Positions 279 to 63,958 of a stretch of DNA of 64,000 nt are shown here, piece by piece (position 1 is the stretch's first letter; the number at the start of each line of letters is the position of its first letter). A model generated the notes under the pieces. That model had not been told where the DNA came from. It saw nothing but the letters and a program-made list of their open reading frames with translations, and did not search any database. This DNA comes from Thermoanaerobaculia bacterium. Its GTDB lineage: Bacteria > Acidobacteriota > Thermoanaerobaculia > UBA5066. The position numbers and the translations under genes are program-made. The stretch lies in contig CAVRAY010000001.1 of NCBI GenBank assembly GCA_963719225.1, positions 3,008,001 to 3,072,000 on the forward strand, given 5' to 3'.

Positions 279-2245
279 GCGACGTGGCGAAGGTCTTCGG
301 CGAGCCTGCGATGCTCCTTCCCGGGCTCCTCCTCGCGGCCCTGGCGGCCGGCGCGCTCGTCTTCTCCGTCCGGCGGCGCGCCGCACGGACCGCGACGCTC
401 GTCTCGCCCGCGCTCGCGGCGAAGGCGGGTCTCGCTCCCGCAGGCGGCTTTCCCGCCGTCGCCGCCGTGCTCACGCTCCTCGTCGTCCTCGGCGTCGGTG
501 CCGCGCTCGCGCGGCCGCGCTGGGGGAAGTCGGCCGAGACCGCGCAGAGGCGGGGAGCCGACGTCGTCTTCGTCCTCGACACGTCCGCCTCCATGCGCGC
601 GGCGGACGTCTCGCCGTCGCGCTTCGTACTCGCGCGGCAGGCCGCGCAGTCTCTCCTGTCCCGCCTCGGCAGCGACCGCGCCGCGTTGATCGCGTGCGAA
701 GGAGAGGCGCAGGCGCTCGTGCCGCTGACTCTCGATGCGGCGGCCGTCGGTCTCTTCCTCGACGCGATGGAGCCCGGCATGGGCGCCAAGCCCGGCACCT
801 CGCTTGCCTCGGGCCTCGCCGCGGCCGCTGAAATGTTCCCCGCCGGGTCGGCGGGCGGCCGGAACGCCGTCGTCTTCTCGGACGGCGAGGATCTCGAAGG
901 CGGCGTCGACGCCGCGATCGCACGCGCGAAAGCCGAAGGCATCACCGTACACGCCGTTTTCGTCGGGGCGCTCGGCGGAACGGGCGCTCCGGTGCCCGAG
1001 GTGGACGCTGCCGGGCGCACGAGCGGCTTCAAGAGCGACGCGAGCGGGCAGCCTGTGCTCTCGAAGGCCGATCCCGACCTCCTTCGCCGCCTCGCGGCCG
1101 AAACCGGAGGCTCGTTCACGGTCGTCTCGTCCGGCCGCACGGACCTCGAAGGTGTCGCCCGACAGATCGATCTCGGCGCGCGCCGCCCGCTCTCCGAGGT
1201 ACTCGTCACGTCTCTCGTAGAGCGCTTCCAGATTCCGCTCGGCGCCGCGGTCGGGGCGCTCGGACTTCTCTTGCTCGGAGTCGGACGGGGGCGAAGCGCT
1301 TCGAGACGAGCAGGGGCATCGGGTTTTCTTCGGAATCTGCTTAGAAGGGGGAAGAGGGGGGCCGCGGAGCTCGGGGTGGCGGCTCTGCTGTTCCTCGCAA
1401 TCGTCCTGGGCGCGCGCGCCGAGGGGCAGCAGCAGGCCCCGGCCGCACCCGCAGCGCAAACGAGCGCTCCGTCGGCGTCCTCGAACGGCGCCGCCGGGCC
1501 CGCTCCTTCCACGGCCTCTTCGAACCCCGCGACTGGCCCGACGCTTCGAGATGCCCAGCCGCTTCCCGACACTCCCTCTCAATTTCCCTTTCTAAGCAAA
1601 ATCTTCTCTTCCCCCCGTTCCGAAGCAAAAAAGGGCCGACAGGCGCTGGACGAGAAGAAGCCCGACGAAGCGATCGTGCATTTCCAGCGCGAGACCGAGA
1701 TGGCGCCGAAGGACCTGACCGGCAGCTACAACCTCGGCACGGCGCAATCGCGCGCGGGCAAGCCCTCCGCGGCGCTCTCGTCGCTCGAGAAGGCGCGGCG
1801 CCAAGGGCGCGGTGCCGTCGCGGCGGACGCGTCTTTCAACACGGGCCAGACTCTGTACCGCGAAAAGCAGTACGAGCCCGCCGCGGCGGCCTTTCGCGAG
1901 GCTTTGAAGCGCCGTCCGGGCGACGCGGACGCGGCCTGGAACTACGAGCTGTGCGTGCGCCGCGCCCAGGAGGAAAAGCAGAAGCAGAAAGAGCAGCAGA
2001 AGGACAAGAAGGATCCCAGGGACGACAAGGAAAAAGCCGGCGGAAAGGACGCGAAGGACAAGCAGCAGGCGGGAAGCGAGGCGCAGAAAAAGCAGCAGCA
2101 GGAGCAGGAGTTCGAGCAGAAGGCGAAGATGACGCGGGACAAGGCCGAGCAGCTTCTGTCCGCCATCGAGCGTTCCGATCTCGACGAGCAGAAGAAGAAG
2201 ATCGCCGAGCAGCGCAGCAAGCGGCGCGTCGCGAGGGACTGGTGA
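275..2245 (+). CDS. VWA + TPR protein (BatB/BatC-like fusion)
   Basis: ATGA overlap with upstream stop; RPRWG, VWA MIDAS-like DTSASM, SDGED, then TPRs (YNLGTA, FNTGQTLY, DAAWNYEL), Q/K-rich tail ending RDW. Confidence 0.85.
   Translation: MSDVAKVFGEPAMLLPGLLLAALAAGALVFSVRRRAARTATLVSPALAAKAGLAPAGGFPAVAAVLTLLVVLGVGAALARPRWGKSAETAQRRGADVVFVLDTSASMRAADVSPSRFVLARQAAQSLLSRLGSDRAALIACEGEAQALVPLTLDAAAVGLFLDAMEPGMGAKPGTSLASGLAAAAEMFPAGSAGGRNAVVFSDGEDLEGGVDAAIARAKAEGITVHAVFVGALGGTGAPVPEVDAAGRTSGFKSDASGQPVLSKADPDLLRRLAAETGGSFTVVSSGRTDLEGVARQIDLGARRPLSEVLVTSLVERFQIPLGAAVGALGLLLLGVGRGRSASRRAGASGFLRNLLRRGKRGAAELGVAALLFLAIVLGARAEGQQQAPAAPAAQTSAPSASSNGAAGPAPSTASSNPATGPTLRDAQPLPDTPSQFPFLSKIFSSPRSEAKKGRQALDEKKPDEAIVHFQRETEMAPKDLTGSYNLGTAQSRAGKPSAALSSLEKARRQGRGAVAADASFNTGQTLYREKQYEPAAAAFREALKRRPGDADAAWNYELCVRRAQEEKQKQKEQQKDKKDPRDDKEKAGGKDAKDKQQAGSEAQKKQQQEQEFEQKAKMTRDKAEQLLSAIERSDLDEQKKKIAEQRSKRRVARDW
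1333..1612. repeat. Dispersed TTCTWAGAA element, inverted pair inside batB/C
   Basis: TGCTTAGAA core 1338-1346 and TTCTAAGCA core 1590-1598. Confidence 0.7.
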
Positions 2246-4050
2246 AGAGAGCTGCCCGTCTCGCCGTGGTCGTTGCCGCGGCCGCGCTCGGCGCGCGCGT
2301 CGCCCGCTCCGCGGACGAGCTTTCCGTGCAGGTTCTCGTGGACAAGGCGCGGCCCGCCGCGGACGACGTCGTGCGGGTGACGTACACGTTCTCGGGATCG
2401 GGTCTCGGCGGCACGCTTCGGCTCCCCGCGAGCCTGCCTCTGAAGAACCTCGTGCTCGCGGGAGGTCCGTCGAAGTCGGATCAGGTTTCTTTCGTGAACG
2501 GCGTCTTCAGCCGCTCGCTTTCGCTGACCTACTTTCTGCGGCCCCAGGGTCCGGGTCCGGCCGAGATCGGCGAAGTTTCGTTCGGATTCGACGAGAAGAC
2601 CGTGAAAGCCTCGAGCTACCTGCTCGAGGTCGGGCCGGCGCGCGGCCGGAGCGGCGCCGCGCCGGAGCCCGAAGACGACGACCCGATTGCGCAGTTCTTC
2701 CGGCGGCGCGACGTTTCCGCGCGTCCCGCCGCCGCGGGCGCCCCCCACGCGCGGCCGTTCCTGGAGTTTCGCGTCACGCCGGACAAGACGACGGCGTACG
2801 TGGGCGAGGAGATCACGCTGCACTACGAGCTGCTCACCCAGGCGGACGTGCAGGGGCTCGAGTACCTCGAGCCGCCGCGCTTCCCCGGCTGCTGGGCCGA
2901 GGACCTCGAGAAGCCGGAGAAGCCCGTGGGTCACCGCGACGTCGTCGACGGCCGCACGGTGATGCGCTTCACGCTGCTCAAAAAGCTCGTGTCGGGCCTG
3001 AACCCCGGCACGGTGAACATCCCCGAGGCGAAGATCCGCACGAGCGTCCGCGGCTCCGCGGATCCCTTCGGCGACCCCTTCGGGTTCTTCCCGCGTTCGC
3101 AGGTCATGGACCTCGTCGCCCGGCCGGTCAGCCTCCGGATCCTTCCGATCCCGGGAGACCCCGCGTTCCATGGACCGGTCGGCCGCTTCGACCTGAGCGC
3201 GAAGCTGGATCGGACGAAGGTCGCTCCCGGCGAAGCCGCCACGCTGCGCATCCGGCTCGCGGGGACCGGCAACCTGCGCACCGCGACCGAGTCGCCCAAG
3301 CTCGAAGTCCCGAACGCCACGCTGTATCCGCCGAGCATGAAGTCCGACTCCTCGCGCGCCGGCCGTACGCAGGTCTCGACGGAATGGAGCTATGTCCTCG
3401 TGCCGAAGGAAAACGGCACCGTCACGATCCCGCCGGTTTCGCTCGCCGTCTTCGACCCCTCCGAGAAGCGCATCGTCACGAAGACGACACAGCCGCTCAC
3501 GCTCGTCGCCGAGGGCGGCGCCGCCCCGGGCGCGGCCGCCGGGCTCACCACCGCCGAAACGACGATGCCTCTCCTGCCGCCTCCCGGACCGTCTCCCGCT
3601 CCGCGAAACGCGAAGTCCGGTCTCGACGCGAGCGTCGACTTCTCCCGGAACACCGTCACGCTCCCGCTCTGGGCCCTGGCCGCGGTGCCGGGGGCGGCTC
3701 TCCTCGGGTTCGGCGCGGTCGTCGCCGTAAGACGGCGCCGGTCCCTCGGCGTCTGGCGCGAGGTCCTCGAGCCGGAGCCGGGAGAGACGAAAGAGCGCGC
3801 GGCCGCGCGCGTCGAGCGTGCGCTCCGCGAGCTTCTCGCGCGCCGGTACCTCGTGCCCGACGGCGCGTCCACGTCCAGCGTCCTCACCGCTCTCGCCCAG
3901 GGCGGCGTTTCCGCCAGGCGGATCGAGGACGTCCGGACGCTGCTCTCCGACGTGGAGTTCCTCCGCACGGCCCCCCAGCTCGGCGACTACGGCACGAAGA
4001 TCGCCACCCTGCGCGCGCACGCCGCCCGCATCCTGCCCCGCCTCGCCTGA
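2242..4050 (+). CDS. batD: BatD family protein
   Basis: GTGA overlap start; signal peptide; repeated Ig-like BatD domains (TAYVGEEI, GPVGRFDL, GTGNL); C-terminal TM segment. Confidence 0.8.
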   Translation: MKRAARLAVVVAAAALGARVARSADELSVQVLVDKARPAADDVVRVTYTFSGSGLGGTLRLPASLPLKNLVLAGGPSKSDQVSFVNGVFSRSLSLTYFLRPQGPGPAEIGEVSFGFDEKTVKASSYLLEVGPARGRSGAAPEPEDDDPIAQFFRRRDVSARPAAAGAPHARPFLEFRVTPDKTTAYVGEEITLHYELLTQADVQGLEYLEPPRFPGCWAEDLEKPEKPVGHRDVVDGRTVMRFTLLKKLVSGLNPGTVNIPEAKIRTSVRGSADPFGDPFGFFPRSQVMDLVARPVSLRILPIPGDPAFHGPVGRFDLSAKLDRTKVAPGEAATLRIRLAGTGNLRTATESPKLEVPNATLYPPSMKSDSSRAGRTQVSTEWSYVLVPKENGTVTIPPVSLAVFDPSEKRIVTKTTQPLTLVAEGGAAPGAAAGLTTAETTMPLLPPPGPSPAPRNAKSGLDASVDFSRNTVTLPLWALAAVPGAALLGFGAVVAVRRRRSLGVWREVLEPEPGETKERAAARVERALRELLARRYLVPDGASTSSVLTALAQGGVSARRIEDVRTLLSDVEFLRTAPQLGDYGTKIATLRAHAARILPRLA

Positions 4051-6728: not shown

Positions 6729-6880
6729 TTTTCTTAGAATGAAAGATGGGCTCACGGCGCAACGAGACGCCGAAGCATCGCCTGCGGACTCCGGCGCCCA
6801 TTCCGCGACGTCGCGCTTCTTTCGGCGCATCGGCCGCCCTAATCACCTTCTAAGAAATCTCTCTCTTCTTCTCTTTCTCT
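6729..6880. repeat. Dispersed element, inverted pair at the mtgA 5' end
   Basis: TTCTTAGAA 6731-6739; TTCTAAGAA 6848-6856 followed by ATCTCTCTCTTCTTCTCTTTCTCT. Confidence 0.8.
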
Positions 6881-9899: not shown

Positions 9900-10565
9900 C
9901 TAGTCCTTCCCGAGCGCGGTGAGAGCGGCGGCCATCAGCTCGGGCGCCTCGGGCGCGTCTTCGGGAAGAGGCTCTTTTTTCCGGGGAGGAACGGACACCT
10001 GCGCCAAACGCTTTTCGCCTCCCAGTAGCGTGAGGACCGGGAATTCCTCGGGCGCGAGCCCGTCGTCCTCCAGCCCCTGGCGGATGTACTCGGCCGCAGC
10101 AGGCAGGAGGAAGTAGTCGGTCTCCTCGGCGAGGCGGGAGAGGTTGCACCGCACCGTCTTTCGCGAAACATCCTGGTCGAAATACCGGAACGTGGACGCC
10201 GGCGATGAGGCGGTGATCCGCCCTCCCGGGCCGCCGTGCATGAACCGCAGGGGCGGCCCGAGGTCCAGGCGAATCTCGTCCTGCATGACGTCCCGCCCGT
10301 CGACGCCCCGCACGACCTCGTGCCGGAGGATGAGGTCGCTTCGGACGAGACCGCGCACGAGCCAGGCGCTGCGCCGCGCGTTCTCGGCCTTCACGGACAC
10401 CTTCGCGAGGTCGCAGACGCGGTTCCCTCGGCCGTCCACGACGCGCTCGAGCGTGATTTTCGGAGGCTCTTCGGCATTCAAAATCCGCCCTGCGATCAAA
10501 ATAGAACAAGAGAAGAAAAGTGGATTTCTTAGAAAGGAAGAACGGCGAGAATGCTGGCGGTTCAG
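9900..10565 (-). CDS. Hypothetical exported protein (third gene of orphan trio)
   Basis: ORF with hydrophobic N-terminus ending A-EEP; AAGGAGG 6 nt before a CTG overlapping the upstream stop; start inferred. Confidence 0.55.
   Translation of the reverse strand: MNRQHSRRSSFLRNPLFFSCSILIAGRILNAEEPPKITLERVVDGRGNRVCDLAKVSVKAENARRSAWLVRGLVRSDLILRHEVVRGVDGRDVMQDEIRLDLGPPLRFMHGGPGGRITASSPASTFRYFDQDVSRKTVRCNLSRLAEETDYFLLPAAAEYIRQGLEDDGLAPEEFPVLTLLGGEKRLAQVSVPPRKKEPLPEDAPEAPELMAAALTALGKD
10508..10540 (+). repeat. Dispersed element, single copy
   Basis: AAGAGAAGAAAAGTGGATTTCTTAGAAAGGAAG, core 10526-10534. Confidence 0.75.
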
Positions 10566-11446
10566 TTGACGCCTCCTTTCGGCGGCGGGAACGCCGGGGG
10601 TGCTGGGAACGGCACGAGGTCCAGAGGAAGACGCGCGAGGGCGCGCCACGGCGAAAGGTCCGCGGGAGCGGCGGAGTCCGGCTCGAAGACGACCGTCCTC
10701 TTGTCAAGCGGCTGCAGCTGGTCGAGGAATGCAATGTTGACCGCCAGCAACGGATCCCGGAGGTGATACGCCGGGAAGTCCCCGAGCGAGCGGTTGCTTT
10801 CAACGGACATCTTCAGAAGCGCCGCGAGGTCGCGTCGCTCGTCCTCATCGAACGTTCCGCCCGCGATCTCGGTGAGGGAGGCACGGACGGTCCGGCTCCC
10901 GAAGTCGTCGATGAAGTACTCGAGGGTGCCGCCCGGCGCCCGCACGCGATTGCGCATCCCGTCGCAGAGCGCGGCGTCGGCCGCGTTCTCGGGAAGAGAA
11001 GATCGCCCCGACGACCAGACCTCGAAGGCAGTCCGAGCCGATGCGACGCGCGCAAAGGTTCGCTCTTCCTCGAGGTGGCGCTCGTCCACGTGGCCGCTCG
11101 ACGACTCGAGGACGTATTGCACCCCGGAGGGCATCGTCACGAGGAGGAGGTTGCGCGAGGGCCAGAAGCGCCGCCACTCCTCCGTGAGGGCCGCGTACCG
11201 CAGGACGACCCAGCGCGCCCGAAAGAGGGGCTGCGCGTCCGGCGGTGCCGCCTTCTCGCGGGCGACGAAGCTGGCATCGCCCTGCAGGAAGGCCCGGCCC
11301 CGGAATGAGTCGAACCAGTCCGGCTCTTCCGCCCGGAGCGCGGCCGATACCGCACAATGCAGGGCGGCCACGCTCAATGTCAGGGCGAAGAGATTCTTCG
11401 AAAGGGAGAGAAAGCGTCCGTCGAACCGGGCCCTCGCGGTCCTCAT
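10562..11446 (-). CDS. Hypothetical exported protein, paralog of 11443-12294
   Basis: ATGA coupling; signal peptide ending RA-EEP; aligns by eye along its length with the neighbour. Confidence 0.7.
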   Translation of the reverse strand: MRTARARFDGRFLSLSKNLFALTLSVAALHCAVSAALRAEEPDWFDSFRGRAFLQGDASFVAREKAAPPDAQPLFRARWVVLRYAALTEEWRRFWPSRNLLLVTMPSGVQYVLESSSGHVDERHLEEERTFARVASARTAFEVWSSGRSSLPENAADAALCDGMRNRVRAPGGTLEYFIDDFGSRTVRASLTEIAGGTFDEDERRDLAALLKMSVESNRSLGDFPAYHLRDPLLAVNIAFLDQLQPLDKRTVVFEPDSAAPADLSPWRALARLPLDLVPFPAPPAFPPPKGGVN

Positions 11447-18688: not shown

Positions 18689-20356
18689 TCAGCGTGACGC
18701 GGCCCTGAAAGGCCATGGAGTCGGCGGGAGAACCAGTTCGCGTTCGCGGCGGGCGAGGAGCCGCGGCTGCGGGGATCCCGTCCGCGCGATCTCCTCTTCG
18801 AGCGTGCCTCGCTGCTCGAAGTAGACGTCGGCGATGTACGCGCGCTGGAGGAGGAGAGAAGGAGAAGGAGAGAGAGAAGGAGAAAAAAAAGAAATCTGCT
18901 TAGAAAGGAGGAATCCGAGGGCCGCGTAGACCGCCGCGCCACAGAAAAATGCAAGCGCCACGCCCCCCCTTCCGCTCCCGTTCCTGTTCTCTTCCCTCTT
19001 CCCTTCTACGAAAATCTTCTCTTCTCTCTTCCCCACTAAGAAAAAATAAGCAGCGACACACACGATCGCCGGCAGAACGAAGCGCGCCGCGCCGGGCGCG
19101 ACGAGATGCAACGTATTCGGCGCGGTCAATCCCCTTTCGAAGAAGAACGCCGCGAAAGAGCCCCAGGGCAGCGCGAAACCGGGCGGAACGAACGGAAACG
19201 CGAACGTCGTCGCGCAGATGGCGAGCGTCGAGGCTCCGACCAGAGCACTCTCGAGAAGTCCTCCCTTTCCGAACGCGAACGGAAAGACGAGGAAGGGCAG
19301 CGCCGCGACGAGATAACGCGGCCCGACGGAGAAACCTCCGTGCCAGTTCGGGTAGCCCGCGTAGAGAAGGAGAAGCGAGAGGGGGACGAGCCCGAGCGCG
19401 AGACGACCCGCGGAAGACACGTTGCGGCGCGACGAAAGAACCACTCCCGGCCACAAAAGGAGAAACGGCGAGAAGACGAGGAGGCCCTTAGACGGATCCG
19501 CGAGGAGTCGAAGCAGGATTTCCGGGGACGGCAGAGAAATGCCGAAGAGGCCGGCAGACGCGAGCGACCGGAAGCCGGCCGCGCGCTCGTGAGCGGAGGA
19601 CAGCTCGAAGACCCCTCCGAAGCAGGCGAGGTCGTACGCGCCGAGAAGGGCGACAAAAGGGGCGCCTCCCGCGGCGAGGGCGAGAGCGCGCCGGGGAGCG
19701 GGAAGGACAGCGCAGAGGACGAGCACTCCCGCCGGCACCGCCGCGGGGTACTCCGAGATCACGGCAAGTCCAAGGAGCGCGCCGGCGGCGAGATCGCAAC
19801 GGAACGAGAGGCGGGGATCTCCGGGAGAAAAAAGCGCGACCCATGCGCCGAAGAGGCACGCCGCTACGAGGGCGTGGGAAAAAAGGAGCAACCCGTACGT
19901 GAAGAGGGGTGTCGCGAAAAGAAGGGCGAACGCCGTGTCTGCTGCGCGCGTGGGGGCGGCTCCGAAACGCAGGGCAACCGGGTAGAGGACGAGGGCGAGA
20001 AACACCGCGGGCAGCGTGGCGCCGAAAAGCCGCATCGCCCACAACACAGGGCGCATCGAGGAAGGCGAAGGCGCGCCCGCGAACACCCGCGCGAGAAGGT
20101 AGCCCGGCAGCGCCATGAGCGTCGCGCCGGGCGCCTTGTTCGAGTAGACGCGCCCGTCCTTCTCCGAGACGTCCTCGAATGCCGGCCCGAGGAGCGGAAG
20201 CACGGAGGAAATCTCCGGCGTGCCACGCTCGACGAGCGACGCGGCGAGCGCCCAGCGCGTGAATTCGTTCGGCGAGAGAAAGTGCGGGTAAACAGGCACG
20301 GCGAGCACCGCCAGAAGGGCGTAAAGCCCCACGACGGCTCCGAACCTCGACCGCAT
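18689..20356 (-). CDS. Polytopic membrane protein, GT-C-like glycosyltransferase (putative)
   Basis: More than 10 TM segments; SPNE..R, YSNKAPG, WHGG...GPRYL motifs reminiscent of GT-C-fold proteins. Confidence 0.6.
   Translation of the reverse strand: MRSRFGAVVGLYALLAVLAVPVYPHFLSPNEFTRWALAASLVERGTPEISSVLPLLGPAFEDVSEKDGRVYSNKAPGATLMALPGYLLARVFAGAPSPSSMRPVLWAMRLFGATLPAVFLALVLYPVALRFGAAPTRAADTAFALLFATPLFTYGLLLFSHALVAACLFGAWVALFSPGDPRLSFRCDLAAGALLGLAVISEYPAAVPAGVLVLCAVLPAPRRALALAAGGAPFVALLGAYDLACFGGVFELSSAHERAAGFRSLASAGLFGISLPSPEILLRLLADPSKGLLVFSPFLLLWPGVVLSSRRNVSSAGRLALGLVPLSLLLLYAGYPNWHGGFSVGPRYLVAALPFLVFPFAFGKGGLLESALVGASTLAICATTFAFPFVPPGFALPWGSFAAFFFERGLTAPNTLHLVAPGAARFVLPAIVCVAAYFFLVGKREEKIFVEGKREENRNGSGRGGVALAFFCGAAVYAALGFLLSKQISFFSPSLSPSPSLLLQRAYIADVYFEQRGTLEEEIARTGSPQPRLLARRERELVLPPTPWPFRAASR
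18850..19046. repeat. Dispersed element, inverted pair with about 45-nt purine tract and duplicated reverse arm
   Basis: Cores 18897-18905, 19004-19012, 19034-19042. Confidence 0.8.
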
Positions 20357-20395: not shown

Positions 20396-21550
20396 ATGGA
20401 CGTCGCGGATTTCGACTTCGTGCTGCCGCACGGATCGATCGCGCAGCGGCCCGCACCGCGCGGAGCCGCCCGCCTCATGACGCTCGACCGAAAGACGGGA
20501 GCGTTCGCCCACCGCTTCGTCGCGGACCTCCCGTCCCTCCTCGGCCCGGGCGACATCCTCGTCCTTAACGACACGAAAGTCATTCCGGCGCGAATTTTCG
20601 GCACGGACGAGAGAGGGAGAAGGACGGAATTTCTGCTGGTTTCGAAGATCGAACAGGAACCGGGGAGTTCGGATTTTTCTTTGAAAGGGGAAGAAGATGA
20701 AGACGAGCTTTGGCGCTGCCTCGCGAAACCGGGGAGGCGGGTGAAGGCCGGGAGGAGGTTTTTCTTTGAAGGTGGATGGGCGGCCGAGGCGCTCGCGAGT
20801 GGCGCGACGGCGCAGCCCGAGCCCCATCCACCTTCTAAGAAAAGCGCCCTTACCCGTCGCACCGAAGCCGGCCTTTACGCCCTCCGCTTCACGAAGAGCG
20901 GGAGCAAAAAGTCTTCTCTTCTCGATGATCTTGACGTTCTCGGGTCCGCGCCGCTCCCCCCGTACATCCACCGACCACTCGGCGTCGCGGACGCGCGGGA
21001 TGCGATCGACTACCAGACGGTGTTCGGGGACCGGCCCGGCGCGATCGCGGCGCCGACCGCGGGCCTCCATTTCACTCGCGAGCTTCTCGCGGCCGTCGCC
21101 GCGCGGGGCGTCGAGGTCGTGCGCGTGACGCTGCACGTCGGCCTCGGCACGTTCAAGCCCGTGAAAGTTGATTACGTCGAGGAGCACCTCATGGAATTCG
21201 AGCGGGCGGAAGTTCCCGCGGCGACCGCCGAACGCGTCAACCAGGCGAAACGCGAGGGGCGGCGCATCGTCGCCGTCGGAACGACGTCCGTGCGCACGCT
21301 CGAAGCGTCTGCTCGTGCGCACGCGGGCCTCGTCGCAGCCGGCGCGTTCGAGACGGACCTCTTTCTCGTGCCGGGCGCGACGTTTAACGTCGTCGACGCG
21401 CTGCTGACGAACTTCCACCTGCCCCGCTCGACGCTGCTCATGCTCGTCTCGGCCTTCGCCGGGCGCGAGCACGTCCTCGCCGCATACGGCGAAGCCGTCC
21501 GCGAGGGCTATCGTTTCTTCAGCTACGGCGACGCGATGTTCATTTCGTGA
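20396..21550 (+). CDS. queA: S-adenosylmethionine:tRNA ribosyltransferase-isomerase
   Basis: DFDF.LP, NDTKVIPAR, PLPPYI, AAPTAGLHF, LHVGLGTF, GTTSVR, TNFHLP, FFSYGDAM. Confidence 0.97.
   Translation: MDVADFDFVLPHGSIAQRPAPRGAARLMTLDRKTGAFAHRFVADLPSLLGPGDILVLNDTKVIPARIFGTDERGRRTEFLLVSKIEQEPGSSDFSLKGEEDEDELWRCLAKPGRRVKAGRRFFFEGGWAAEALASGATAQPEPHPPSKKSALTRRTEAGLYALRFTKSGSKKSSLLDDLDVLGSAPLPPYIHRPLGVADARDAIDYQTVFGDRPGAIAAPTAGLHFTRELLAAVAARGVEVVRVTLHVGLGTFKPVKVDYVEEHLMEFERAEVPAATAERVNQAKREGRRIVAVGTTSVRTLEASARAHAGLVAAGAFETDLFLVPGATFNVVDALLTNFHLPRSTLLMLVSAFAGREHVLAAYGEAVREGYRFFSYGDAMFIS
20671..20843. repeat. Dispersed element copies inside queA, including a 21-bp inverted repeat
   Basis: Cores 20677, 20762, 20833; 20760-20780 and 20823-20843 are 20/21 complementary. 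Confidence 0.85.
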
Positions 21551-25399: not shown

Positions 25400-26887
25400 G
25401 TGGACATCGAGAACGCCGCCCGCACCAAGGCGATCCTGAGCCGCGACACCCGCTTTTCGGGCCGATTCTTCGTCGGCGTCGTGACGACGCGCGTCTATTG
25501 CCGGCCCGGCTGCCCCGCGCCTCTTCCGAAACCGAAGAACATGCGCTTTTACACGTATGCCGCGGCCGCCGAAGACGCCGGGTTCCGCCCGTGCCGGCGG
25601 TGCCGGCCGGAAACCGCCCCGGGCTCGCCCGTATGGGACGGGACGTCCGCGACCGTTTCGCGCGCATTGAAGAGGATCTTCGACGGCGACGGCCATGAGT
25701 CCGTTGAAGCGCTGTCCGAACGTCTCGGGCTCGGCTCCCGGCACCTCAGGCGCCTTTTTGCGGAGCACGTCGGCGCATCGCCGGCGTCGCTCCAGCGCAC
25801 GCATCGTGTCCATTTCGCACGCCGGCTACTGGACGAGACGTCGCTCCCCGTCTCGGAAGTTGCGTTCGCGGCCGGCTTCGAGAGCGTCCGGCGTTTCAAC
25901 GACGCGATCCGCGCAACGTTCCATCGGGCCCCTCGAGAGCTGCGAAGAGCTTCGAAGGGAAAAGAGCGAGCGCCAGCGACGGGAATGCCGGAGAAGACGC
26001 TGACTCTCAAGCTGCCGGTCCGGCCGCCGTTCGATGCGACCGCCCTTTTCTCCTTTCTCAGAGATCGTGCTCTTCCGGGCATCGAAGCGGTTCGCGGTCA
26101 CGCTTATTCTCGAACGATCGAAAGCCGCGGACGAGCGGGAATCGTGACGGTCTCACACGAAGCCGGACGGGAATTCCTGAGTCTTTCGCTGAATTTCTCG
26201 CCGGGCCCCGATCTCCTCGACTTCGTGCGCCGCACAGGACGTATCTTCGACGTCGACGCGGACCCGCTCGCGATCGGGACCGTGCTGAGCCGCGATCCGC
26301 TCCTCGCGCCGCTCGTCGCGGCCCGGCCGGGACTTCGCGTGCCCGGCGCCTGGGACCCGTTCGAGATCGCCGTCCGCGCGATTCTCGGCCAGCAGGTGTC
26401 CGTGCGCGGTGCGCGGACGCTCGCGGGACGGCTCGTCGCGGCGTTCGGACGGCCGCTCGAGGACGGAAGCGTGGAAGGCCTGACGCACGTCTTCCCGGGG
26501 CCGGCCGCTCTCGCCGTCTCGGACCTCTCCAAGATCGGCGTTCCCCGCGCGCGCGCGAACGCGATCCGGGCGCTCGCTTCCGCCGTTCACACGAAGAAGG
26601 TCGAGCTCGCCGCGACACGCGGCCTCGACGATCTCGAGCAGCGCCTCTGCGCGCTTCCGGGCATCGGGCCGTGGACGGCTCAATACGTGGCGCTCCGCGC
26701 GTTCGGCGAGCCGGACGCGTTCCCTGCGGGGGATCTCGGGCTCCGCCGGGCGCTCGAGACGGCGGGTGTTTCGGCGGATGCCACGGCGCTTCGCGCGCGT
26801 GCGGCGTCCTGGAGCCCGTTCCGCGCGTACGCGACGTTGCATCTCTGGAATTCACTTCCCTCCCGGGAGAAAAGGAGATCGGAATGA
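25400..26887 (+). CDS. alkA: Ada Zn-binding/AraC-HTH + AlkA DNA-3-methyladenine glycosylase fusion
   Basis: YCRPGC and FRPCRRC Zn site, AraC HTH, AILGQQVS, HhH LPGIGPWTA, FPAGD. Confidence 0.92.
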   Translation: MDIENAARTKAILSRDTRFSGRFFVGVVTTRVYCRPGCPAPLPKPKNMRFYTYAAAAEDAGFRPCRRCRPETAPGSPVWDGTSATVSRALKRIFDGDGHESVEALSERLGLGSRHLRRLFAEHVGASPASLQRTHRVHFARRLLDETSLPVSEVAFAAGFESVRRFNDAIRATFHRAPRELRRASKGKERAPATGMPEKTLTLKLPVRPPFDATALFSFLRDRALPGIEAVRGHAYSRTIESRGRAGIVTVSHEAGREFLSLSLNFSPGPDLLDFVRRTGRIFDVDADPLAIGTVLSRDPLLAPLVAARPGLRVPGAWDPFEIAVRAILGQQVSVRGARTLAGRLVAAFGRPLEDGSVEGLTHVFPGPAALAVSDLSKIGVPRARANAIRALASAVHTKKVELAATRGLDDLEQRLCALPGIGPWTAQYVALRAFGEPDAFPAGDLGLRRALETAGVSADATALRARAASWSPFRAYATLHLWNSLPSREKRRSE

Positions 26888-33093: not shown

Positions 33094-33408
33094 GTGAAAC
33101 GCGCGGCCCTGCTGATGCTCGTCGTCGGGGCGCCGCTCGTCCTGCTCTTCTTCCCCGAGCTCCGCCGCCGCATCGCACACAAACTGCGGTTCCTGCTACT
33201 CGTGTGGTCGGGGGCGGTGCTCTTCTTCGGGCTGGCCGGCGCGCCGGGGAGAGAGAAGAAGAGTTTCTTAGAAGGTGAATCGGGCGCGTCCATCGCCTGG
33301 TCTCTCTTGGGAGTGGCCCTGTTCGCCGCGGCGTTCGTCTCGGTCCTGCGTGATTTCCGGCTCTCTTCACCTTCTAGGGAATCTTCCGGCGGCGCGAAGC
33401 GCCGCTGA
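33094..33408 (+). CDS. Small hypothetical membrane protein (about 3 TM segments)
   Basis: Fills intergenic gap; hydrophobic segments; TAACAT 7 nt upstream of GTG. Confidence 0.55.
   Translation: MKRAALLMLVVGAPLVLLFFPELRRRIAHKLRFLLLVWSGAVLFFGLAGAPGREKKSFLEGESGASIAWSLLGVALFAAAFVSVLRDFRLSSPSRESSGGAKRR
33249..33386. repeat. Dispersed element, inverted pair inside the small membrane ORF
   Basis: Cores 33265-33273 (then GGTGAA) and 33372-33380 (preceded by TTCACC). Confidence 0.8.
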
Positions 33409-37990: not shown

Positions 37991-39064
37991 TCAGGGCTGC
38001 TTTGGCGCCGAAAGCAGCTTCAGCTCGATGGACACGACGTCGTGCACGGCCCGGCCCGGGCTGCGCGCCGAGATCAGCGAGGGAAAGTCCTTCAGGTCGA
38101 GCTCCGGGCCGTCGGCTGCCAGCACCTCGTCGACCGAGAACGCCGCGGAGTACCCATCGCGTCCCGTGACGACGAGAACGGCGGAGGAAAGAGCGCGGCG
38201 CGCCGCCGCGCCTTCCGTGGGCGTGCCGAGAAAATCGAATACTCTGCGAAGAGGGACGCGCGTCGAGTCGCCACCTCGAATCTCGGCAATGGTGATTTTC
38301 TTAGAAGGGGAAAAGGGGCCGAGCAGATCGATCGCCGGCTGCTTCGATGCCGCGGCGGCGCCCGTGCCCTCTCTACCATTCGCAGAAGATCTCTCTTTCT
38401 CCGCGCGCCTCCCCACGGGGCGCTCGACGAGCCTGTCGTCCGCGGGCGCGTTCATCGATCTCTTCAGGAATCGCATGCCGGCTTCCGCCGTCTTCCAGGT
38501 CTGGCGGCCCTTTTCGTCGAATCCGCGGTCCCATTGCGTGAAGCCGTCCTGCGCCAGGATCAGCACCGTTCTCATCGTCGCCGCGGATTTCACCGTCGAG
38601 GGGCAGTCCGTTCCCGGCATCTCCCCTTCCCAGAGGTCGCCCTTCTTCCGGAGCAGCACGGCGCAACCGGGTCGCTCACGCAGGTCGCTTGCGCCGTAGA
38701 GCGCGAGGGCGGAGGGATCGCGCCACTTCCCGCGCACGAGGATGGGGTCCTTGGGGTCGAAGGCGCGCATGCGCACCGCATCCCCGTCCTCTTCGAGGCG
38801 GTAGAAGCGCTGCTGGGTCGGCTCGTCGAGCCTCGGAGCGGCGGCCAGCTCGCGATAGACGACGAGAGCGCCGTTCGCGATCCGGCTCTTCGGCACCGCC
38901 ACGACGACGACCCGGACGGCTTCCGGCGTGCCTTCGGAACCCTGGTCCTTCAGCTCGAAAGTTCCCGTGAGCCGGGCGGCGACCTCCGCGGCCCGGCCCC
39001 CGTCGGCGACGAGGGGCGCCGCGAGGAGCAGGCCGACGACGGCAGCCGCTCCCGGCGCTTTCAC
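37991..39064 (-). CDS. Exported CpcT/CpeT-family lyase-like protein with extra C-terminal domain
   Basis: GTGA overlap with typA; P..QRFYR, ERPGC, C.S, WDRGFD..G.Q.W motifs of the CpcT/CpeT family. Confidence 0.7.
38294..38400. repeat. Dispersed element, inverted pair inside the CpcT-like gene linker
   Basis: Cores TTCTTAGAA 38298-38306 and TTCGCAGAA 38379-38387 + GATCTCTCTTTCT. Confidence 0.7.
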
Positions 39065-47368: not shown

Positions 47369-49257
47369 CCCCGCCGCCCGAAACGTCTCTCGAGCTCCTC
47401 GTGCGCGAAAGCGAGGAGGATGGGCCGGCCGTGCGGGCACGTCCACGGGTCGCGGCAAACGGCGAGGTCCGCGAGGAGCCGTGCGGCCTCGGCCGGCGCG
47501 AGCCGGTGGTTCACCGTGATCGCGCCGCGGCAGGCGAGGGACGCGGCGAGGACTTCGCGCCGCAGCGCGGGCGACGATACTGCGCCCTCGGGCAGCGCCG
47601 CGAGGCGCGCAAGGGTGTCGCGGAGGGCGGGAACGACCGAGGACGCCGGCGTCTCGGGAGGCGTCGCCGAGACGAGGAACGTGCGGTTCGAGAGCTCGGA
47701 GACGACGAAGCCGGCTTCCGCGAGGAAATCGTCCGAGCTCGACAGGAGCGTCGCCTCGTGCGGCGTCGCCTCGAACGTCATCGGCGTCAGGAGATTCTGG
47801 GAATGGACGTCCGAGGTCTCCAGTCTCTCGAGGAATCTCTCGTATCGCACGCGCTCGTGCGCGACGTGCTGGTCGATGAGCACCAGACCTTCCTCTCCTT
47901 CGGCCACGAGGAACGAGTCGCGGTACTGGCCGAGGAGGCGGATGAGGCCGAGCGGGGAGGGAGAAAGAGGAGAAGAGATTTCTTGTGAATATGGGGAAAG
48001 AGAAGAAAGAGAAGAGGAGATTTCTTCTGAATAGGAAGAGGGGGAAGGGCCGGGCGCGATCGCGTCGAGCAGCGCCTGCGTGTCGGCACGGTCCCGCCCC
48101 GCGCCCCAGCCGCCCGCGCCGTAGCGAGCCGTCCCCTCGCCGACCTCAGACGCGCCCCGCCAGCCTATTCCCCCTTCTAAGAAGTCTCTCTCTCCTCTTT
48201 CTCTATCGCCTTCTCTTCTTCCTCCGATGCCCTCGAACGCCTCCCCCTCCACCGACACCGCGCGTTTCCCGCCCGTCAGCGCCTGAACGAGGCCGCGGTG
48301 GACGAGCGCGTGCACGGTGCCCGAGTCGCGGAACCGGACCTCGAGCTTCTGCGGGTGAACGTTCACGTCGCAGAGCTCCGGGGCGCAGGCGAGAAACAGC
48401 GCGAAGCCCGCATGGCGATCCGAGCGCAGCACCTCGCGCGTCGCGAGGCCGACCGCGTGCGCCACGGTCGCGTCCCGTATGGCGCGGCCGTTCACGAAGA
48501 ACCATTGGTGCGCCCGCGACGGGAACGTCGTGTCCGGCCGCGTGACGGCGCCCGTGAGCGTCATCCCGTTGAAGGCGAAGTCCACCTCGCGCGGGGGCGC
48601 GGGCGAGGCGAGGCCGAGGACTTCGCGAAACCGCGACGCGATTCCGGCCGCGGGAGGCAGATCGAGGAGGAGCCGGCTTCCCGCGCCGAGCGCGAAGGAC
48701 ACGTCCGGCCGCGACAGCGCGAGCGTCGTGACGGCCTTCACGACCGCCCGGAGCTCGGCGTCGGCGCTCTTCAGGAACTTGCGCCGCGCCGGGACGTTGC
48801 CGAAGAGGTCCTCGACGACGACGCGCGTACCTCTCGGGTGCCGTGCGGGCGAGACTTGCACGGGCGCGCCCCGTTCGGCGACGACCTCGGTCCCGAGGCC
48901 GGAGTCGTCCGGCGACGTCGTGAGGACGAGGCGCGAGACGGAAGCGATCGAGGGAAGGGCCTCTCCTCGAAAGCCCATGGTGCCGATCGAGGTCAGATCC
49001 TGGAACGTGCGGATCTTCGAAGTCGCATGCCGCTCGAGGGCGAGCCGCGCGTCCCCGGCGGACATGCCGGAGCCGTCGTCCAGGACCTCGATCCGCGTGA
49101 TCCCCCCGCCTTCGACGTCCACGCGGACGCGCCGCGCTCCGGCATCGAGCGCGTTCTCCACGAGCTCCTTGACAGCGGACGCCGGACGCTCCACGACCTC
49201 GCCCGCGGCGATCTGGTCGACGAGCGTGTCGGGAAGAACGCGAACGGGTCCGCCCAC
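47365..49257 (-). CDS. mutL: DNA mismatch repair endonuclease MutL
   Basis: IAAGEVVERP, KELVEN, HATSK, GFRGEAL, DQHVAHER, CPHGRP. Confidence 0.96.
   Translation of the reverse strand: MGGPVRVLPDTLVDQIAAGEVVERPASAVKELVENALDAGARRVRVDVEGGGITRIEVLDDGSGMSAGDARLALERHATSKIRTFQDLTSIGTMGFRGEALPSIASVSRLVLTTSPDDSGLGTEVVAERGAPVQVSPARHPRGTRVVVEDLFGNVPARRKFLKSADAELRAVVKAVTTLALSRPDVSFALGAGSRLLLDLPPAAGIASRFREVLGLASPAPPREVDFAFNGMTLTGAVTRPDTTFPSRAHQWFFVNGRAIRDATVAHAVGLATREVLRSDRHAGFALFLACAPELCDVNVHPQKLEVRFRDSGTVHALVHRGLVQALTGGKRAVSVEGEAFEGIGGRREGDRERGERDFLEGGIGWRGASEVGEGTARYGAGGWGAGRDRADTQALLDAIAPGPSPSSYSEEISSSLSSLSPYSQEISSPLSPSPLGLIRLLGQYRDSFLVAEGEEGLVLIDQHVAHERVRYERFLERLETSDVHSQNLLTPMTFEATPHEATLLSSSDDFLAEAGFVVSELSNRTFLVSATPPETPASSVVPALRDTLARLAALPEGAVSSPALRREVLAASLACRGAITVNHRLAPAEAARLLADLAVCRDPWTCPHGRPILLAFAHEELERRFGRRG
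47955..48225. repeat. Dispersed element copies inside the mutL linker
   Basis: Two degenerate forward copies (47980, 48022; 42-bp period) and reverse TTCTAAGAA 48175-48183 + long TC tract. Confidence 0.8.
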
Positions 49258-52433: not shown

Positions 52434-53789
52434 TCAGAGGCTGCGATGCCGGAACGGACGGGCGTCTTTCCCGCTGTACGTCTCCACGACCTGGCCGCTG
52501 CCCCTCAGGAGGTACTTGTACGTCACGAGCCCGTCGAGGCCCACGGGGCCGCGGGCATGAATCCGGCTCGTCGAGATGCCGACTTCCGCTCCGAAGCCGT
52601 AGCGGAAGCCGTCGGCGAAACGCGTGGAGGCGTTGTGGAAGACGCCGGCCGCGTCGACACGAGAGAGAAACGCCTCGGCGGCGGCCGCGTCGGCCGTGAC
52701 GATGGCCTCCGTGTGGTGCGAGCCGTATCCGTTCACGTGCTCCACGGCCTCGTCTAGCGACTCCACGAGCTTGACGGACAGGGTCGGCCCGCCGTACTCC
52801 GAGCGCCAGTCGTCCTCGGAGGCTGAAGCGAGATCGAGAGCGGAGGCGAGAGCCCGCGTCTTCGCGCACGCGCGGATCTCGATCCCTGCCTGAACGAGCC
52901 GAGTCAGCAAGGGGACGAGGAAACGCTCCGCCGCGTCCCGGTGGACGAGGAGAGTTTCGGCCGCATTGCACGCCGCCGGGTACTGGAGCTTGCTGTCGAG
53001 GACGATCGCCTGCGCCATCGCTTCGTCCGCCGCGCGATCCACGTAGACGTGGCAGACCCCTTCCGCATGGCCGAGAACCGGGATGCGCGTATGCGCCTGG
53101 ACGTGCCGGACGAGATCGTATCCGCCGCGCGGGATGACGAGGTCGATGTGCTCGTCGAGCGCGAGGAGCGCGTCGACCTCGGCGCGCCCGGCCACGGACG
53201 TGAGCGCGCCGTCCGGGATGTCGGGGAAGGACGCGAGGGCCATCGTGAAGACGTCGAGGATTGCCGCCGTGGACCGAACGGACTCGCGTCCGCCCTTGAG
53301 GATCGCCGCGTTGCCCGACTTGAGCGCCAGCGACCCGATCTGCGCCACCGCGTCGGGACGCGACTCGAAGATCACCAGGAGGACGCCCAGCGGACACGTC
53401 ACCTTCTCCAGGACGAGGCCGTCGTCGAGGAGCGTTCTGGAAAGGACGCGCCCGGAGGGGTCCGAGAGCGCGGCGACGGCACGGACGCCGGCGGCCATTC
53501 CGTACACCTTGGTCTCGTCGAGCTTCAGGCGTTCGAGGGCCGAGGGCGCGAGAGGATTTTCTTTGAAGGTGGTGCGGGCGGCGTCCATGTCCTCGGCGTT
53601 TGCGCTCAGGATGGCTCCGCTGAATCGCTCCAACCCGTCCGCCACCTTTCGAAGAAAATCATTCTTTTCGTCCGCCGGCACGGCAGCCAGCTTTCTCGCC
53701 GCCTCTCGGGCTCGCGTCGCGATTCCGACCGGTCCCATATTCCCTTCTAAGAAATCTCTCTCTTCCTCTTTCTCTCCCTCTTTCGTCAT
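52434..53789 (-). CDS. proA: Glutamate-5-semialdehyde dehydrogenase
   Basis: IFESRP, LKGG.E, PRGG, ACNA.ET, GSHHTE, NASTRFADG, HARGPVG; alternative ATG at 53738. Confidence 0.96.
   Translation of the reverse strand: MTKEGEKEEERDFLEGNMGPVGIATRAREAARKLAAVPADEKNDFLRKVADGLERFSGAILSANAEDMDAARTTFKENPLAPSALERLKLDETKVYGMAAGVRAVAALSDPSGRVLSRTLLDDGLVLEKVTCPLGVLLVIFESRPDAVAQIGSLALKSGNAAILKGGRESVRSTAAILDVFTMALASFPDIPDGALTSVAGRAEVDALLALDEHIDLVIPRGGYDLVRHVQAHTRIPVLGHAEGVCHVYVDRAADEAMAQAIVLDSKLQYPAACNAAETLLVHRDAAERFLVPLLTRLVQAGIEIRACAKTRALASALDLASASEDDWRSEYGGPTLSVKLVESLDEAVEHVNGYGSHHTEAIVTADAAAAEAFLSRVDAAGVFHNASTRFADGFRYGFGAEVGISTSRIHARGPVGLDGLVTYKYLLRGSGQVVETYSGKDARPFRHRSL
53551..53783. repeat. Dispersed element copies in the proA 5' region
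   Basis: Cores 53559 (forward), 53648 and 53745 (reverse). Confidence 0.8.
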
Positions 53790-57894: not shown

Positions 57895-57999
57895 AGAGAA
57901 GAAGATTTTCTTAGAAGGTGAATGCGGGCCGTGGCTCGTGCGCGCGGAGACCACCCGATGAACGGCGCCTTCGACACCATCGAAGAAATCCCTCTCTCC
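57894..57999. repeat. Dispersed element, inverted pair at the permease-permease junction
   Basis: AAGAGAAGAAGATTTTCTTAGAAGGTGAA (core 57908) and CACCATCGAAGAAATCCCTCTCTCC (core 57979). Confidence 0.75.
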
Positions 58000-59293: not shown

Positions 59294-60262
59294 ATGGCGG
59301 CGCGCCGGAGAAGCAACGTCCATCCGCTGAACGGGCGTTCTCTGCGAGCCGCCGCGGCGCGGCTCAAGCGCGGGGAGCTCGTCGCGTTCCCGACGGAGAC
59401 CGTCTACGGCCTTGGAGCGAACGCGCTGGACGAGCAGGCGGTCGCGAAGATCTTCGCCAAGAAGGGACGGCCGCGCGACAACCCGATGATCGTGCATGTC
59501 AGCGACAGAAAGATGCTTAGAAAGGTAATTCGGCGACTGCCGCCGCTCGCCGTGCGACTGGCGGCTCGCTTTTGGCCGGGGCCTCTCACCCTCGTCCTTT
59601 CCAAGAAATCTTCAATCTCTTCTCTTGTGACCGCCGGACGGGACACGGTCGCCGTCCGGATGCCGCAAGGCGTCGCGCGCGACCTCGTCCGCCTCGCGGG
59701 CGTCCCGATCGCCGCGCCCAGCGCGAACCTGTCCGGCCGCCCGAGCCCCACGACGGCACGGCACGTCGCCGAGGACTTTCCGGACATCTATGTCCTCGAC
59801 GGCGGACCGACGGAGCACGGCCTCGAATCGACGGTCCTCGCGCTCGAGCCGCGACCTGCCGTGTTGAGGCAAGGCGCGCTGAGTGAAGAATTTCTTAGAA
59901 AGATGATCCCTGGGCTTCGCCGCAGCCACGCCGGCAACCATGGCGCGAGCCCCGGCACGAAGTACACACATTACGCGCCGTCGCGTCCCCTCATTCTCTT
60001 TCTAAGAAAATCTTCTCTTCTCTCTTACTCTCGAAGGCATCCCAACGCGCTCGTCCTCGGCCCTGCGCTTCTCTCTCCTCTCTTTCCGAAGCAAAGATTT
60101 CTTTCCCTCGGCTCTTCATCCGAAGAGATTGCGCGCGGGCTTTTCGCCGCGCTGCGCACGCGCCGCAAGGGGACGGAGCTCCTTGCGCTCGCCATCCCCC
60201 GCCGCGGCGTCGGCCGCGCGGTCATGGACCGTTTGACACGCGCCGCGACGCGCGTGGTGTGA
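59294..60262 (+). CDS. tsaC: L-threonylcarbamoyladenylate synthase (Sua5)
   Basis: PTETVYGL, KGRP.DNP.IVH, FWPGPLT, APSAN.SG, SPG.KY.HYAP. Confidence 0.94.
   Translation: MAARRRSNVHPLNGRSLRAAAARLKRGELVAFPTETVYGLGANALDEQAVAKIFAKKGRPRDNPMIVHVSDRKMLRKVIRRLPPLAVRLAARFWPGPLTLVLSKKSSISSLVTAGRDTVAVRMPQGVARDLVRLAGVPIAAPSANLSGRPSPTTARHVAEDFPDIYVLDGGPTEHGLESTVLALEPRPAVLRQGALSEEFLRKMIPGLRRSHAGNHGASPGTKYTHYAPSRPLILFLRKSSLLSYSRRHPNALVLGPALLSPLFPKQRFLSLGSSSEEIARGLFAALRTRRKGTELLALAIPRRGVGRAVMDRLTRAATRVV
59507..60030. repeat. Dispersed element, two consecutive inverted pairs inside tsaC
   Basis: Cores 59514/59599 and 59892/60000. Confidence 0.8.
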
Positions 60263-60265
60263 CGC

Positions 60266-62949: not shown

Positions 62950-63876
62950 TCATGGGCGGACGAGGCTGACGGCCGCCGCGACGGCCTTCCTCCCCGCCGG
63001 CGACTTCGGATCGATGATCTCGAAATGCCCGCCTGGGACGCGCACGAGCCGCGCGTCGTCACCTCCGGCTTTCGCGCGGCCCACATAGGCGTAGCTGAGG
63101 TCGAACGGCACGATGTCGTCGCGCTCCCCGTGGACGAGGATCTGCGGGACGCCGAGCGGAAGGAGCTCGGCCGGCGAAGAGGAGAGATAGCGACCGGCCA
63201 TGTCGCCCGGCGAGCCGCCCATGAGCGCGCCCACCGCTCCGCTCCCCACGCCGTCGCGGTAGGCGCGCGCGAGATCCGGGACGCCCGCGAGGGAGACGGC
63301 GCCTCCCACGCGAAGCGGATCAACCTCGAAGAGCGGATCCGTCTTCCAGATTCGCGGGCGCGCGGCGAGCCAGAGTGCGAGGTGGCCGCCCGCCGAATGT
63401 CCGATCGTGACGACGCGCCCGAGATCGAGCGGATGCGTCTTCGAGAGCGCACGCAGGTGATTCGTCGCCCGGGACGCGTCGCGGAACGTGCCCGGCCAGC
63501 CGCCGCCGTCTTCGCCGACGCGCCGGTACTCGATGTTCCACGTGGCGACCCCGGCCGCCGTGATCGCCGACGAGAGCCTGTCCATGAGATCGAGGCCGTA
63601 AGCGGCCTTCCAGAAGCCGCCGTGCACCACGACCGCGACGGGATGCGGCCCCGCGCCGCGGGGAAGGCGCAGCTCCCCGAACTGCGACTTTCCGGTTCCG
63701 TAGGAGATTCTGATTAGGGAAGAAGAAGAGGAAGAGGAAGAGGAGAAAAGAGAGGAAGAGAAGATTTCTTTGAAGGGAAGAGGGGCTCGGGCAAGCGCCC
63801 GGTTCGCGAGCGCCGCCGAAGCCGCGGCTCCGGCGCTCATGATCATTCTAAGAAAAACCCTCTTCGAACAATCCAT
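62950..63876 (-). CDS. Alpha/beta hydrolase with Tat-like signal and poly-Ser linker
   Basis: HGGFW, NIEYRR, GHSAGG, HGERDDIVP, GHF; N-terminus MDCSKRVFLR; start inferred. Confidence 0.85.
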   Translation of the reverse strand: MDCSKRVFLRMIMSAGAAASAALANRALARAPLPFKEIFSSSLFSSSSSSSSSLIRISYGTGKSQFGELRLPRGAGPHPVAVVVHGGFWKAAYGLDLMDRLSSAITAAGVATWNIEYRRVGEDGGGWPGTFRDASRATNHLRALSKTHPLDLGRVVTIGHSAGGHLALWLAARPRIWKTDPLFEVDPLRVGGAVSLAGVPDLARAYRDGVGSGAVGALMGGSPGDMAGRYLSSSPAELLPLGVPQILVHGERDDIVPFDLSYAYVGRAKAGGDDARLVRVPGGHFEIIDPKSPAGRKAVAAAVSLVRP

Positions 63877-63958
63877 TACGTCGACAGCAGTGCTGCTACG
63901 AACCGAGCTTCCTCCAGCCCTATTCACCTTCTAAGAAATACTCTCTTCGAACGATCCA
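63718..63958. repeat. Dispersed element cluster with long purine tract and 30-bp direct repeat
   Basis: Cores 63766 (forward), 63846 and 63929 (reverse); 63846-63875 and 63929-63958 are 27/30 identical. Confidence 0.85.

Follow-up and report, generated by a model that had tools for sequence, protein, structure and literature searches.

The 64-kb window analysed here, a stretch of 64,000 nucleotides from a Thermoanaerobaculia bacterium, carries many copies of a short AT-rich DNA motif within and between its genes, most of which belong to pairs of sites that face each other. The source genome (G000; relatives bear labels of the form G0xx, G1xx and G2xx) is a 4.75-Mb assembly with 68% GC that comprises two contigs, C1 and C2, and has a coding share of 90%. 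Genes were called with our own hexamer model, and 47 proteins of the window were checked against Pfam. The original prediction, made from the letters of the window, named 14 exact TTCT(A/T)AGAA cores, all of which are present where it placed them and represent a single word, TTCTTAGAA, found seven times on each strand. The 12 near-variants that it added all score as sites with a matrix trained on the genome, although four of them (1338, 1590, 18897 and 59514) read TGC and not TTC.

Facing pairs, in which a plus-strand site is followed by a minus-strand site, occur in varied contexts in the window. The first (1338..1598; sites at 1338 and 1590, 252 bp apart) lies within the gene of a VWA/TPR protein (275-2245, plus strand), and the second (6731..6856; 6731 and 6848, 117 bp) spans the start, as called, of a gene for a monofunctional transglycosylase (6739-7551, plus strand). 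Further pairs are located within an unannotated 580-aa gene (18689-20431, minus strand) at 18897..19012 (18897 and 19004, 107 bp), in a weakly supported 104-aa open reading frame (ORF) or intergenic gap at 33265..33380 (33265 and 33372, 107 bp), in the C-terminal portion of a gene of the CpeT family (37991-39064, minus strand) at 38298..38387 (38298 and 38379, 81 bp), and at the junction of two genes encoding MacB-like permeases at 57908..57987 (57908 and 57979, 71 bp). Larger clusters are found within queA (20677..20841; plus, plus and minus at 20677, 20762 and 20833, separated by 85 and 71 bp), in the mutL linker (47981..48183; plus, plus and minus at 47981, 48022 and 48175), across the start of a proA-like gene of the aldehyde dehydrogenase family and the gap to an amino-acid-kinase gene (53559..53753; plus, minus and minus at 53559, 53648 and 53745), and at 63766..63937, a region that is intergenic by our own gene calls (plus, minus and minus at 63766, 63846 and 63929, separated by 80 and 83 bp). 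The sua5/tsaC gene (59294-60262, plus strand) contains five sites in 59514..60093, at 59514, 59599, 59892, 60000 and 60085 in the order plus, minus, plus, minus, minus. The lone sites comprise a strong intergenic one (10526..10534, plus), one within an unannotated gene (11394..11402, plus; gene 10562-11446, minus strand), a weaker intergenic one (26055..26063, minus) and one within the O6-methylguanine methyltransferase gene (27034..27042, plus; gene 26884-27396, plus strand).

In the complete G000 assembly the exact core occurs 273 times, while an iterated matrix, run to convergence, recovers 904 sites at 16 bits and 795 at 20 bits. The site is about 35 bp long and consists of a purine tract, an A/T-T step, the core TTCTT-N-GAA and a second purine stretch resembling GG(T/G)GAAGAGG, the offset of which from the core is variable. 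The core is pseudo-palindromic and the flanks are polar, as was originally described; however, the GA-rich tract is not one-sided, both flanks being purine-rich on the same strand. Two kinds of null model were used, namely, five synonymous-codon shuffles and two order-5 Markov simulations; the reversed genome was unsuitable as a control because the motif is nearly mirror-symmetric. Called genes contain 161 exact cores versus 0-2 in the shuffles, which is the codon-preserving comparison that the original prediction proposed, and matrix matches of at least 20 bits occur at about 167 per Mb versus 0-2 per Mb in the simulations. The simulations still yield 16-18 exact cores per Mb because their training genome itself bears the motif. 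The chance figure of 0.03 exact cores per 64 kb that had been estimated by hand underestimates what a null would give, but the enrichment far above chance is upheld by both shuffles and simulations. The motif is real and not an assembly artefact, an explanation raised at the outset, because all 28 other genomes of the genus are rich in the word and share orthologous positions. A cis-element system exists which is strongly selected and has the facing pair as its defining unit. It is apparently undescribed so far: full-text literature searches, with most subscription journals and supplements outside their coverage, returned no description of the word or of its arrangement.

Contrary to the claim that nearly all copies are inside genes, 273 of the 795 sites at 20 bits are intergenic, and in the window 9 of 33 sites lie between genes or at the border of one. 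The initial 120 bases of genes tend to be free of sites, which are concentrated just past stop codons. Within genes they force rare codons, as had been noticed: in 18 Sua5 orthologues A or T occupies the third codon position at a frequency of 0.60 in the core columns, compared with 0.13 elsewhere. The proposal that selection acts on the DNA rather than on the protein is supported by the presence of sites on both strands and in several frames, by these rare codons and by the maintenance of sites in variable protein stretches.

The copies are not independently scattered, as the term ‘dispersed element’ had implied, but mostly form facing pairs. When neighbouring matrix sites of G000 follow each other in the plus-then-minus order, 308 of 342 are separated by less than 300 bp, compared with only 13 of 342 in the opposite order, and facing clusters include 653 of the 904 sites (72%). 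Even strong single sites have a weak facing partner in 28% of 127 cases, versus 1.6% in the outward control. The spacing of pairs is mostly 68-250 bp, with a sharp onset near 68 bp, a peak near 76 bp and a tail extending to about 250-300 bp. When three adjoining spacing ranges were compared, the central one contained 37 of 75 spacings, which indicates a second mode near 137 bp (post hoc p=0.003); a 25-26 bp rhythm in spacings above 120 bp reaches only p=0.03, also post hoc. No helical phasing was detected for periods of 8-14 bp, including 10-11 bp. Short spacers are GC-richer than the background (0.73-0.76 versus 0.64-0.68), clusters occur about once per 10 kb, and the two arms of a pair may be regarded as equal in strength (p=0.08). 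An array of tandem Ser/Thr kinase paralogues at C1:2293328-2319611 displays the arrangement repeatedly, each copy having a facing pair 93 bp apart in the kinase N-lobe with serine-rich loop expansions following the second arm.

The two arms are independent of each other. In 239 pairs, arm-to-arm likeness relative to shuffled partners has a z of 0.3-0.7 by alignment and arm duplex energy a z of -1.7, while spacers fold no better than shuffles. A hairpin or copying between the arms was rejected on this lack of covariation. Mirror-repeat covariation within sites, as would be relevant to a triplex, is weak (5.48 versus 5.42 +/- 0.04), and this reading was set aside. It is extremely improbable that the pairs act at the level of RNA, with arms pairing in transcripts as a processing stem, a terminator or an RNA-protein site. 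Any transcript over a pair does contain an arm and then its approximate complement, and the gathering of intergenic sites after stop codons would fit such a role; against this, partners do not covary, single genic sites are strand-neutral with respect to transcription (37 versus 40), gaps between convergent genes are not preferred (31 of 482 bear sites, versus 32 of 608 divergent gaps), and an Rfam search of the window gave no match.

Comparison of orthologous positions, which the original prediction had suggested, showed that the sites are conserved within the genus. In queA (one frameshifted and one partial locus were dropped), 22 of 23 full-length orthologues from the genus have the middle site, which replaces aligned sequence and leaves no gap, while the outer sites, present in 15 and 14 of the 23, lie in genus-specific loop expansions; none of five outgroup genes has a site. 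In mutL one arm is found in 10/10 and the other in 8/10 genus sequences, compared with none in 10 outgroups, and its doubled sites arose from a local tandem duplication. All 18 sua5 orthologues have retained the sites at 59599 and 60000; in six of these orthologues, all with an expanded linker, a new partner has appeared 80-83 bp from a conserved site, which may reflect one event. The orthologues of bipA, pcnB and pepP contain no sites. The genome G019 shares 76% nucleotide identity with G000, and for its aligned sites the G000 counterpart is strong in 54 of 67 cases, weak in three and absent in ten, a further eight sites being unaligned. Several lineage-specific site differences are scattered substitutions without a gap. 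By these alignments, sites arise by substitution, by loop insertion or by local duplication.

The presence of the word in related genomes was likewise examined. The 12-base word TTTCTTMGAARG has 68-357 copies in each of the 28 other genus genomes, compared with 0-7 per genome in 32 representatives of other genera. When 251 genomes were drawn from across the class, counts were conspicuous only in the genus and in the sister-genus genome G183 (57 copies); the sister-genus genome G101 has seven copies and all others have 12 or fewer. The tallies include G037, G202 and G205, which are unpublished, as low-count rows, and no conclusion rests on them. The range of the word is therefore one genus of Thermoanaerobaculia (29/29 genomes) and, weakly, its sister genus, where G183 retains a weak preference for the facing order (10 versus 2 with a low threshold); no facing bias was found in other genera. 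Samples from other families, which were small (200 kb each of G040 and G049, and 40-60 kb of G029, G032 and G085), contained no facing AT-rich word. Among the 80 loci listed by a metagenome scan for the pair, 61 have a GC content of 61% or more together with a protein identity to G000 of 57% or more. Viruses gave one pair match, in a contig of 39% GC, and single matches numbering 56; GC did not exceed 50% in any of them. Among sequencing runs, DNA runs share no more than 0.14 of the words, and no RNA run is listed.

A copying process acting on a discrete element, the other option considered in the original prediction, is not supported, the spacers being host sequence with only one or two short spacers common to unrelated loci. 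Of 275 spacers in G000, 67 have some match elsewhere, and where the target also has sites it is nearly always a paralogous gene or the duplicated part of C2. The one clear link between unrelated loci is that of C1:947477 and C1:1963209, which have a whole spacer of 73-75 bp in common, and comparisons among 88 short spacers scored above 40 in only 2 of 3,828 cases. A common spacer family was accordingly rejected. It is also decidedly unlikely that the pairs descend, as remnants or in domesticated form, from the ends of a mobile element with inverted repeats and were later kept by selection; candidates for such an element are a doublet of repetitive extragenic palindromic sequences (REP; the doublet, REPIN), a Rickettsia palindromic element (RPE), a miniature inverted-repeat transposable element (MITE) or the inverted heptamer arrays of relatives. 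This origin would explain why the arms face each other, the in-frame loop expansions that came with some sites, as in queA, and the spacer shared by the two unrelated loci; intergenic pairs also tend to follow stop codons as REPs do (PMC3733652). However, most in-gene spacers are aligned host coding sequence, the arms do not covary, short spacers hardly ever resemble one another, and the several gap-free differences between lineages are substitutions.

Related families do bear facing arrays of 7-base repeats. In other Thermoanaerobaculia (L131 and L136 in G104; L150-L159) such tandem arrays stand alone or flank PF05635 genes, with a unit that differs per locus, and the other-family sample from G104 has heptamer arrays in place of the facing word; the PF05635 heptamer-array loci are ten in number, one being from an unpublished genome. 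In the genus studied here the flanks of the sites contain no period-7 signal (0.299 versus 0.307 in shuffled sequence), which argues against a mobile-element origin, and the only PF05635 gene of the genus, which is decayed, has neither arrays nor sites next to it. The Y1 (REP-associated tyrosine transposase, RAYT) family also counts against this origin, as it is absent from G000 and 24 of the 28 other genus genomes, common in motif-free relatives, and represented within the genus by four copies that have no flanking motif pairs. The sporadic Y1-family genes of the genus (L463, L464 and L466) have short terminal repeats of their own that are unrelated to the motif and resemble the TIRYT type described in PMC3733652.

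The distribution of sites along the chromosome was mapped, as had been proposed. The origin was placed at about 0.33 Mb of C2 by dnaA and a parS-like palindrome, and a dif-like site lies at about 2.0376 Mb of C1, just downstream of a second parA-parB operon and with a motif pair on each side in G000. Up to 1.15 Mb from dif there are 23.9 sites per 100 kb, compared with 10.0 at greater distances (2.4-fold), and intergenic occupancy climbs from 6-12% to 25-36% from origin to terminus. Of 26 genus genomes, 21 have a site in the gap containing dif, where its offset takes several non-homologous values. Among genes that G000 has in common with G019 the terminus effect holds (28/107 versus 11/86 site-bearing, p=0.03). 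There is no clear replichore bias, as strands are balanced per 200 kb and single sites number 62/53 and 41/55 on the two chromosome arms. The only assembled 16S gene (C1:903987-905542) and the main ribosomal-protein cluster (C1:2.68-2.73 Mb) are unusually distant from the origin, at about 1.4-1.5 Mb.

The reading that is tentatively preferred here is that the sites are two-site docking or looping sites of a lineage-specific chromosome-binding protein with a role in chromosome architecture. The reader is presumed to be a protein acting on double-stranded DNA because the arms lack covariation and the strands lack bias. A candidate reader would need two oppositely oriented polar sites and would bridge them or load between them; the minimum spacing near 68 bp may represent its steric footprint. 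Spacings have no helical phase, therefore a flexible bridge or a sliding or translocating step seems likelier. Such a protein could act as a chromosome organiser for which demand is greatest in the terminus half, its job possibly being chromosome architecture or late segregation.

Several results weigh against this interpretation. The gradient is gone in ancient core genes: single-copy genes with orthologues in other genera are site-bearing in 12/61 cases in the terminus half versus 8/39 (p=1.0), and for all shared genes the difference is borderline (46/201 versus 22/151, p=0.057). In the G019 assembly a site-rich block corresponding by orthology to the terminus region of G000 is placed 290-810 kb from dnaA, and part of the origin-bearing contig C2, a possible chimera, is duplicated at 76% identity. 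No reader protein was found among the candidates profiled; MatP (PF06303) is absent in 5/5 genomes, with a positive E. coli control, as is the histone fold, and ParB2, the product of the second parB, is order-wide, has a nearly unchanged recognition helix and has a candidate site of its own that is different. In view of the gene-age control, the G019 assembly and the self-duplication of C2, the link of the sites to the terminus is only suggestive. The two ends of C2 (C2:1-250000 and C2:600000-872000) are homologous at about 76% identity, with housekeeping genes doubled, and are likely a chimeric join of two related genomes. On the same contig, C2:201373-204173 contains four tiny lysine-rich ORFs (45-59 aa) with a common core sequence.

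The second parA-parB operon (parA2-parB2, C1:2037571-2039524) directly adjoins dif, and the parB2-dif link is kept in 7/8 genomes checked outside the genus. Its position beside dif and the flanking pairs suggests ParB2 as the reader, in the manner of a Noc-like clamp for the terminus half, which on the whole is very improbable. The residue of the ParB2 recognition helix aligned to position 179 is Ala in the motif clade, in 27/27 aligned genus and both sister-genus sequences, and Ser or Thr in 6/6 others; in ParB and Noc this position is a specificity residue, according to PMC7383237. Against ParB2, its gene is present in nearly all relatives without the word, so that the two distributions do not match, and the residue change is a single clade event shared by G101, which has only seven exact words. 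A 15-bp imperfect palindrome at a fixed 32 bp from dif, found in the genus and in several other genera across the family, is the likelier ParB2 site. Known ParB and Noc sites are, moreover, single palindromes and not polar pairs.

Other candidate readers were rejected on their distribution. A basic 164-aa protein (C1:3836045-3836539, minus strand) has no Pfam match, occurs family-wide and includes an RGRP stretch, which we take to be AT-hook-like; it is possibly a nucleoid protein, and a motif site lies just past its stop codon in 6/6 loci. It is present in 25/28 genus genomes, but also in 6/8 other genera of the family. A ComEA-like protein with a double helix-hairpin-helix (C1:1007283-1007921) is largely genus-specific, and sites are found in or beside its gene in 12/12 loci; however, although it occurs in 23/28 genus genomes, it is also found in G030 and has weak matches elsewhere. 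The decayed PF05635 four-helix-bundle gene and a GspH-like pilin do not follow the word either.

Competence genes of G000 comprise ComEC, two ComEA-like genes and the GspH-like pilin. Their presence is consistent with the sites being an uptake or recombination signal that spreads by molecular drive, as DNA uptake sequences (DUS) and uptake signal sequences (USS) do, and is read as a facing pair, an explanation that is somewhat unlikely. Sites would then pile up in long-resident core DNA because pair-bearing DNA is preferentially taken up or recombined, and in a 400-kb sample of G019, 74 of 75 sites are indeed in DNA that it has in common with G000 and one in about 81 kb of unshared DNA. The fading of the position gradient in ancient genes also fits, as do sites at both ComEA-like loci in many relatives (12/12 and 13/25 loci) and the preference on both strands for permissive protein stretches, which resembles that reported for uptake sequences in PMC2397512 and PMC2817400. 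On the other hand, competence genes are order-wide and also occur in genera without the word, and the density of about one cluster per 10 kb is low. A profile of the ComP-type pilin (PF16732) matched none of five genomes, but its control matched nowhere either. A single DUS is enough, and inverted DUS pairs are terminators no more than 21 nt apart according to PMC2397512, whereas here 72% of sites are paired, at 68-250 bp.

The statement that the word is none of the known analogues holds for those tested. The sites matS, NBS (Noc-binding), SBS (SlmA-binding) and parS are single palindromes present in tens of copies. Like these targets of MatP, Noc, SlmA and ParB, the motif is a dispersed DNA-level site that is tolerated in genes and uneven along the origin-terminus axis; unlike them it is a polar site with about 900 copies and needs a facing partner. 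Its sites extend over the whole chromosome without the Ter macrodomain confinement of matS. Relative to the single palindromes bound by ParB and Noc, it has a pseudo-palindromic core with polar flanks, and the ParB2 profile does not match the word. The cyanobacterial highly iterated palindrome HIP1 is short, truly palindromic and associated with methyltransferases. It is likewise highly iterated, located in coding DNA, lineage-restricted and of unclear function, but the site described here is long (about 35 bp), polar and arranged in pairs. Invertons and shufflons are not indicated, as spacer orientation and frame are constant in all aligned queA, mutL and sua5 orthologues of the assembled genomes. 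RPEs and MITEs differ in that no conserved internal insert is present here and host coding sequence aligns through the pairs. In being lineage-specific, present in hundreds of copies on both strands, biased to the core genome, conserved and placed over permissive protein stretches, the sites resemble DUS and USS (PMC2397512 and PMC2817400), from which they differ by a longer degenerate site, an arrangement mostly in facing pairs that have a minimum spacing and are 68-250 bp apart, a lower density and a raw bias to the terminus half. Architecture imparting sequences (AIMS) and FtsK-orienting polar sequences (KOPS) are polar too and rise in abundance toward the terminus, but AIMS are strand-biased octamers (PMC5993296), while our sites are opposed in pairs and have no replichore strand bias, which also separates them from KOPS and Chi. 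Opposed doublets, often just after stop codons and sometimes in-frame in genes, are also typical of REPs, of bacterial interspersed mosaic elements (BIME), of REPINs and of RPEs; REPs are tagged stem-loops tied to RAYTs (PMC3733652). The consensus here has no GTAG/CGTC tag or stem-loop and no associated RAYT, and compared with REPs and RPEs the arms do not covary, the spacers consist of host sequence and many sites replace existing letters instead of being inserted.

A bolder form of the docking and looping interpretation, held with still less confidence, is that an orientation-dependent paired-site code evolved recently in one genus. A protein would recognise two opposed sites separated by some 76 or 137 bp and wrap or loop the short segment of DNA between them, forming boundaries or anchors that are concentrated round the terminus and dif, and the benefit would be large enough to rewrite and lengthen essential proteins. 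If true, bacteria would have a counterpart of orientation-coded architectural sites that differs from every single-palindrome system. To our knowledge, the bacterial sites that reach the abundance needed to reshape proteins, namely, uptake sequences, HIP1, KOPS and Chi, all act singly. A polar site that needs a facing partner at a preferred distance and has arisen in one genus hints at a new DNA-handling mechanism, and the word appears to be fading in or out in the sister genus. The 29 genomes with the word, two with little of it and more than 260 sampled relatives without it provide a comparative handle, and the identity of the reader would reveal either a new principle by which bacterial chromosomes are organised or a third type of DNA-uptake drive, one based on pairs.

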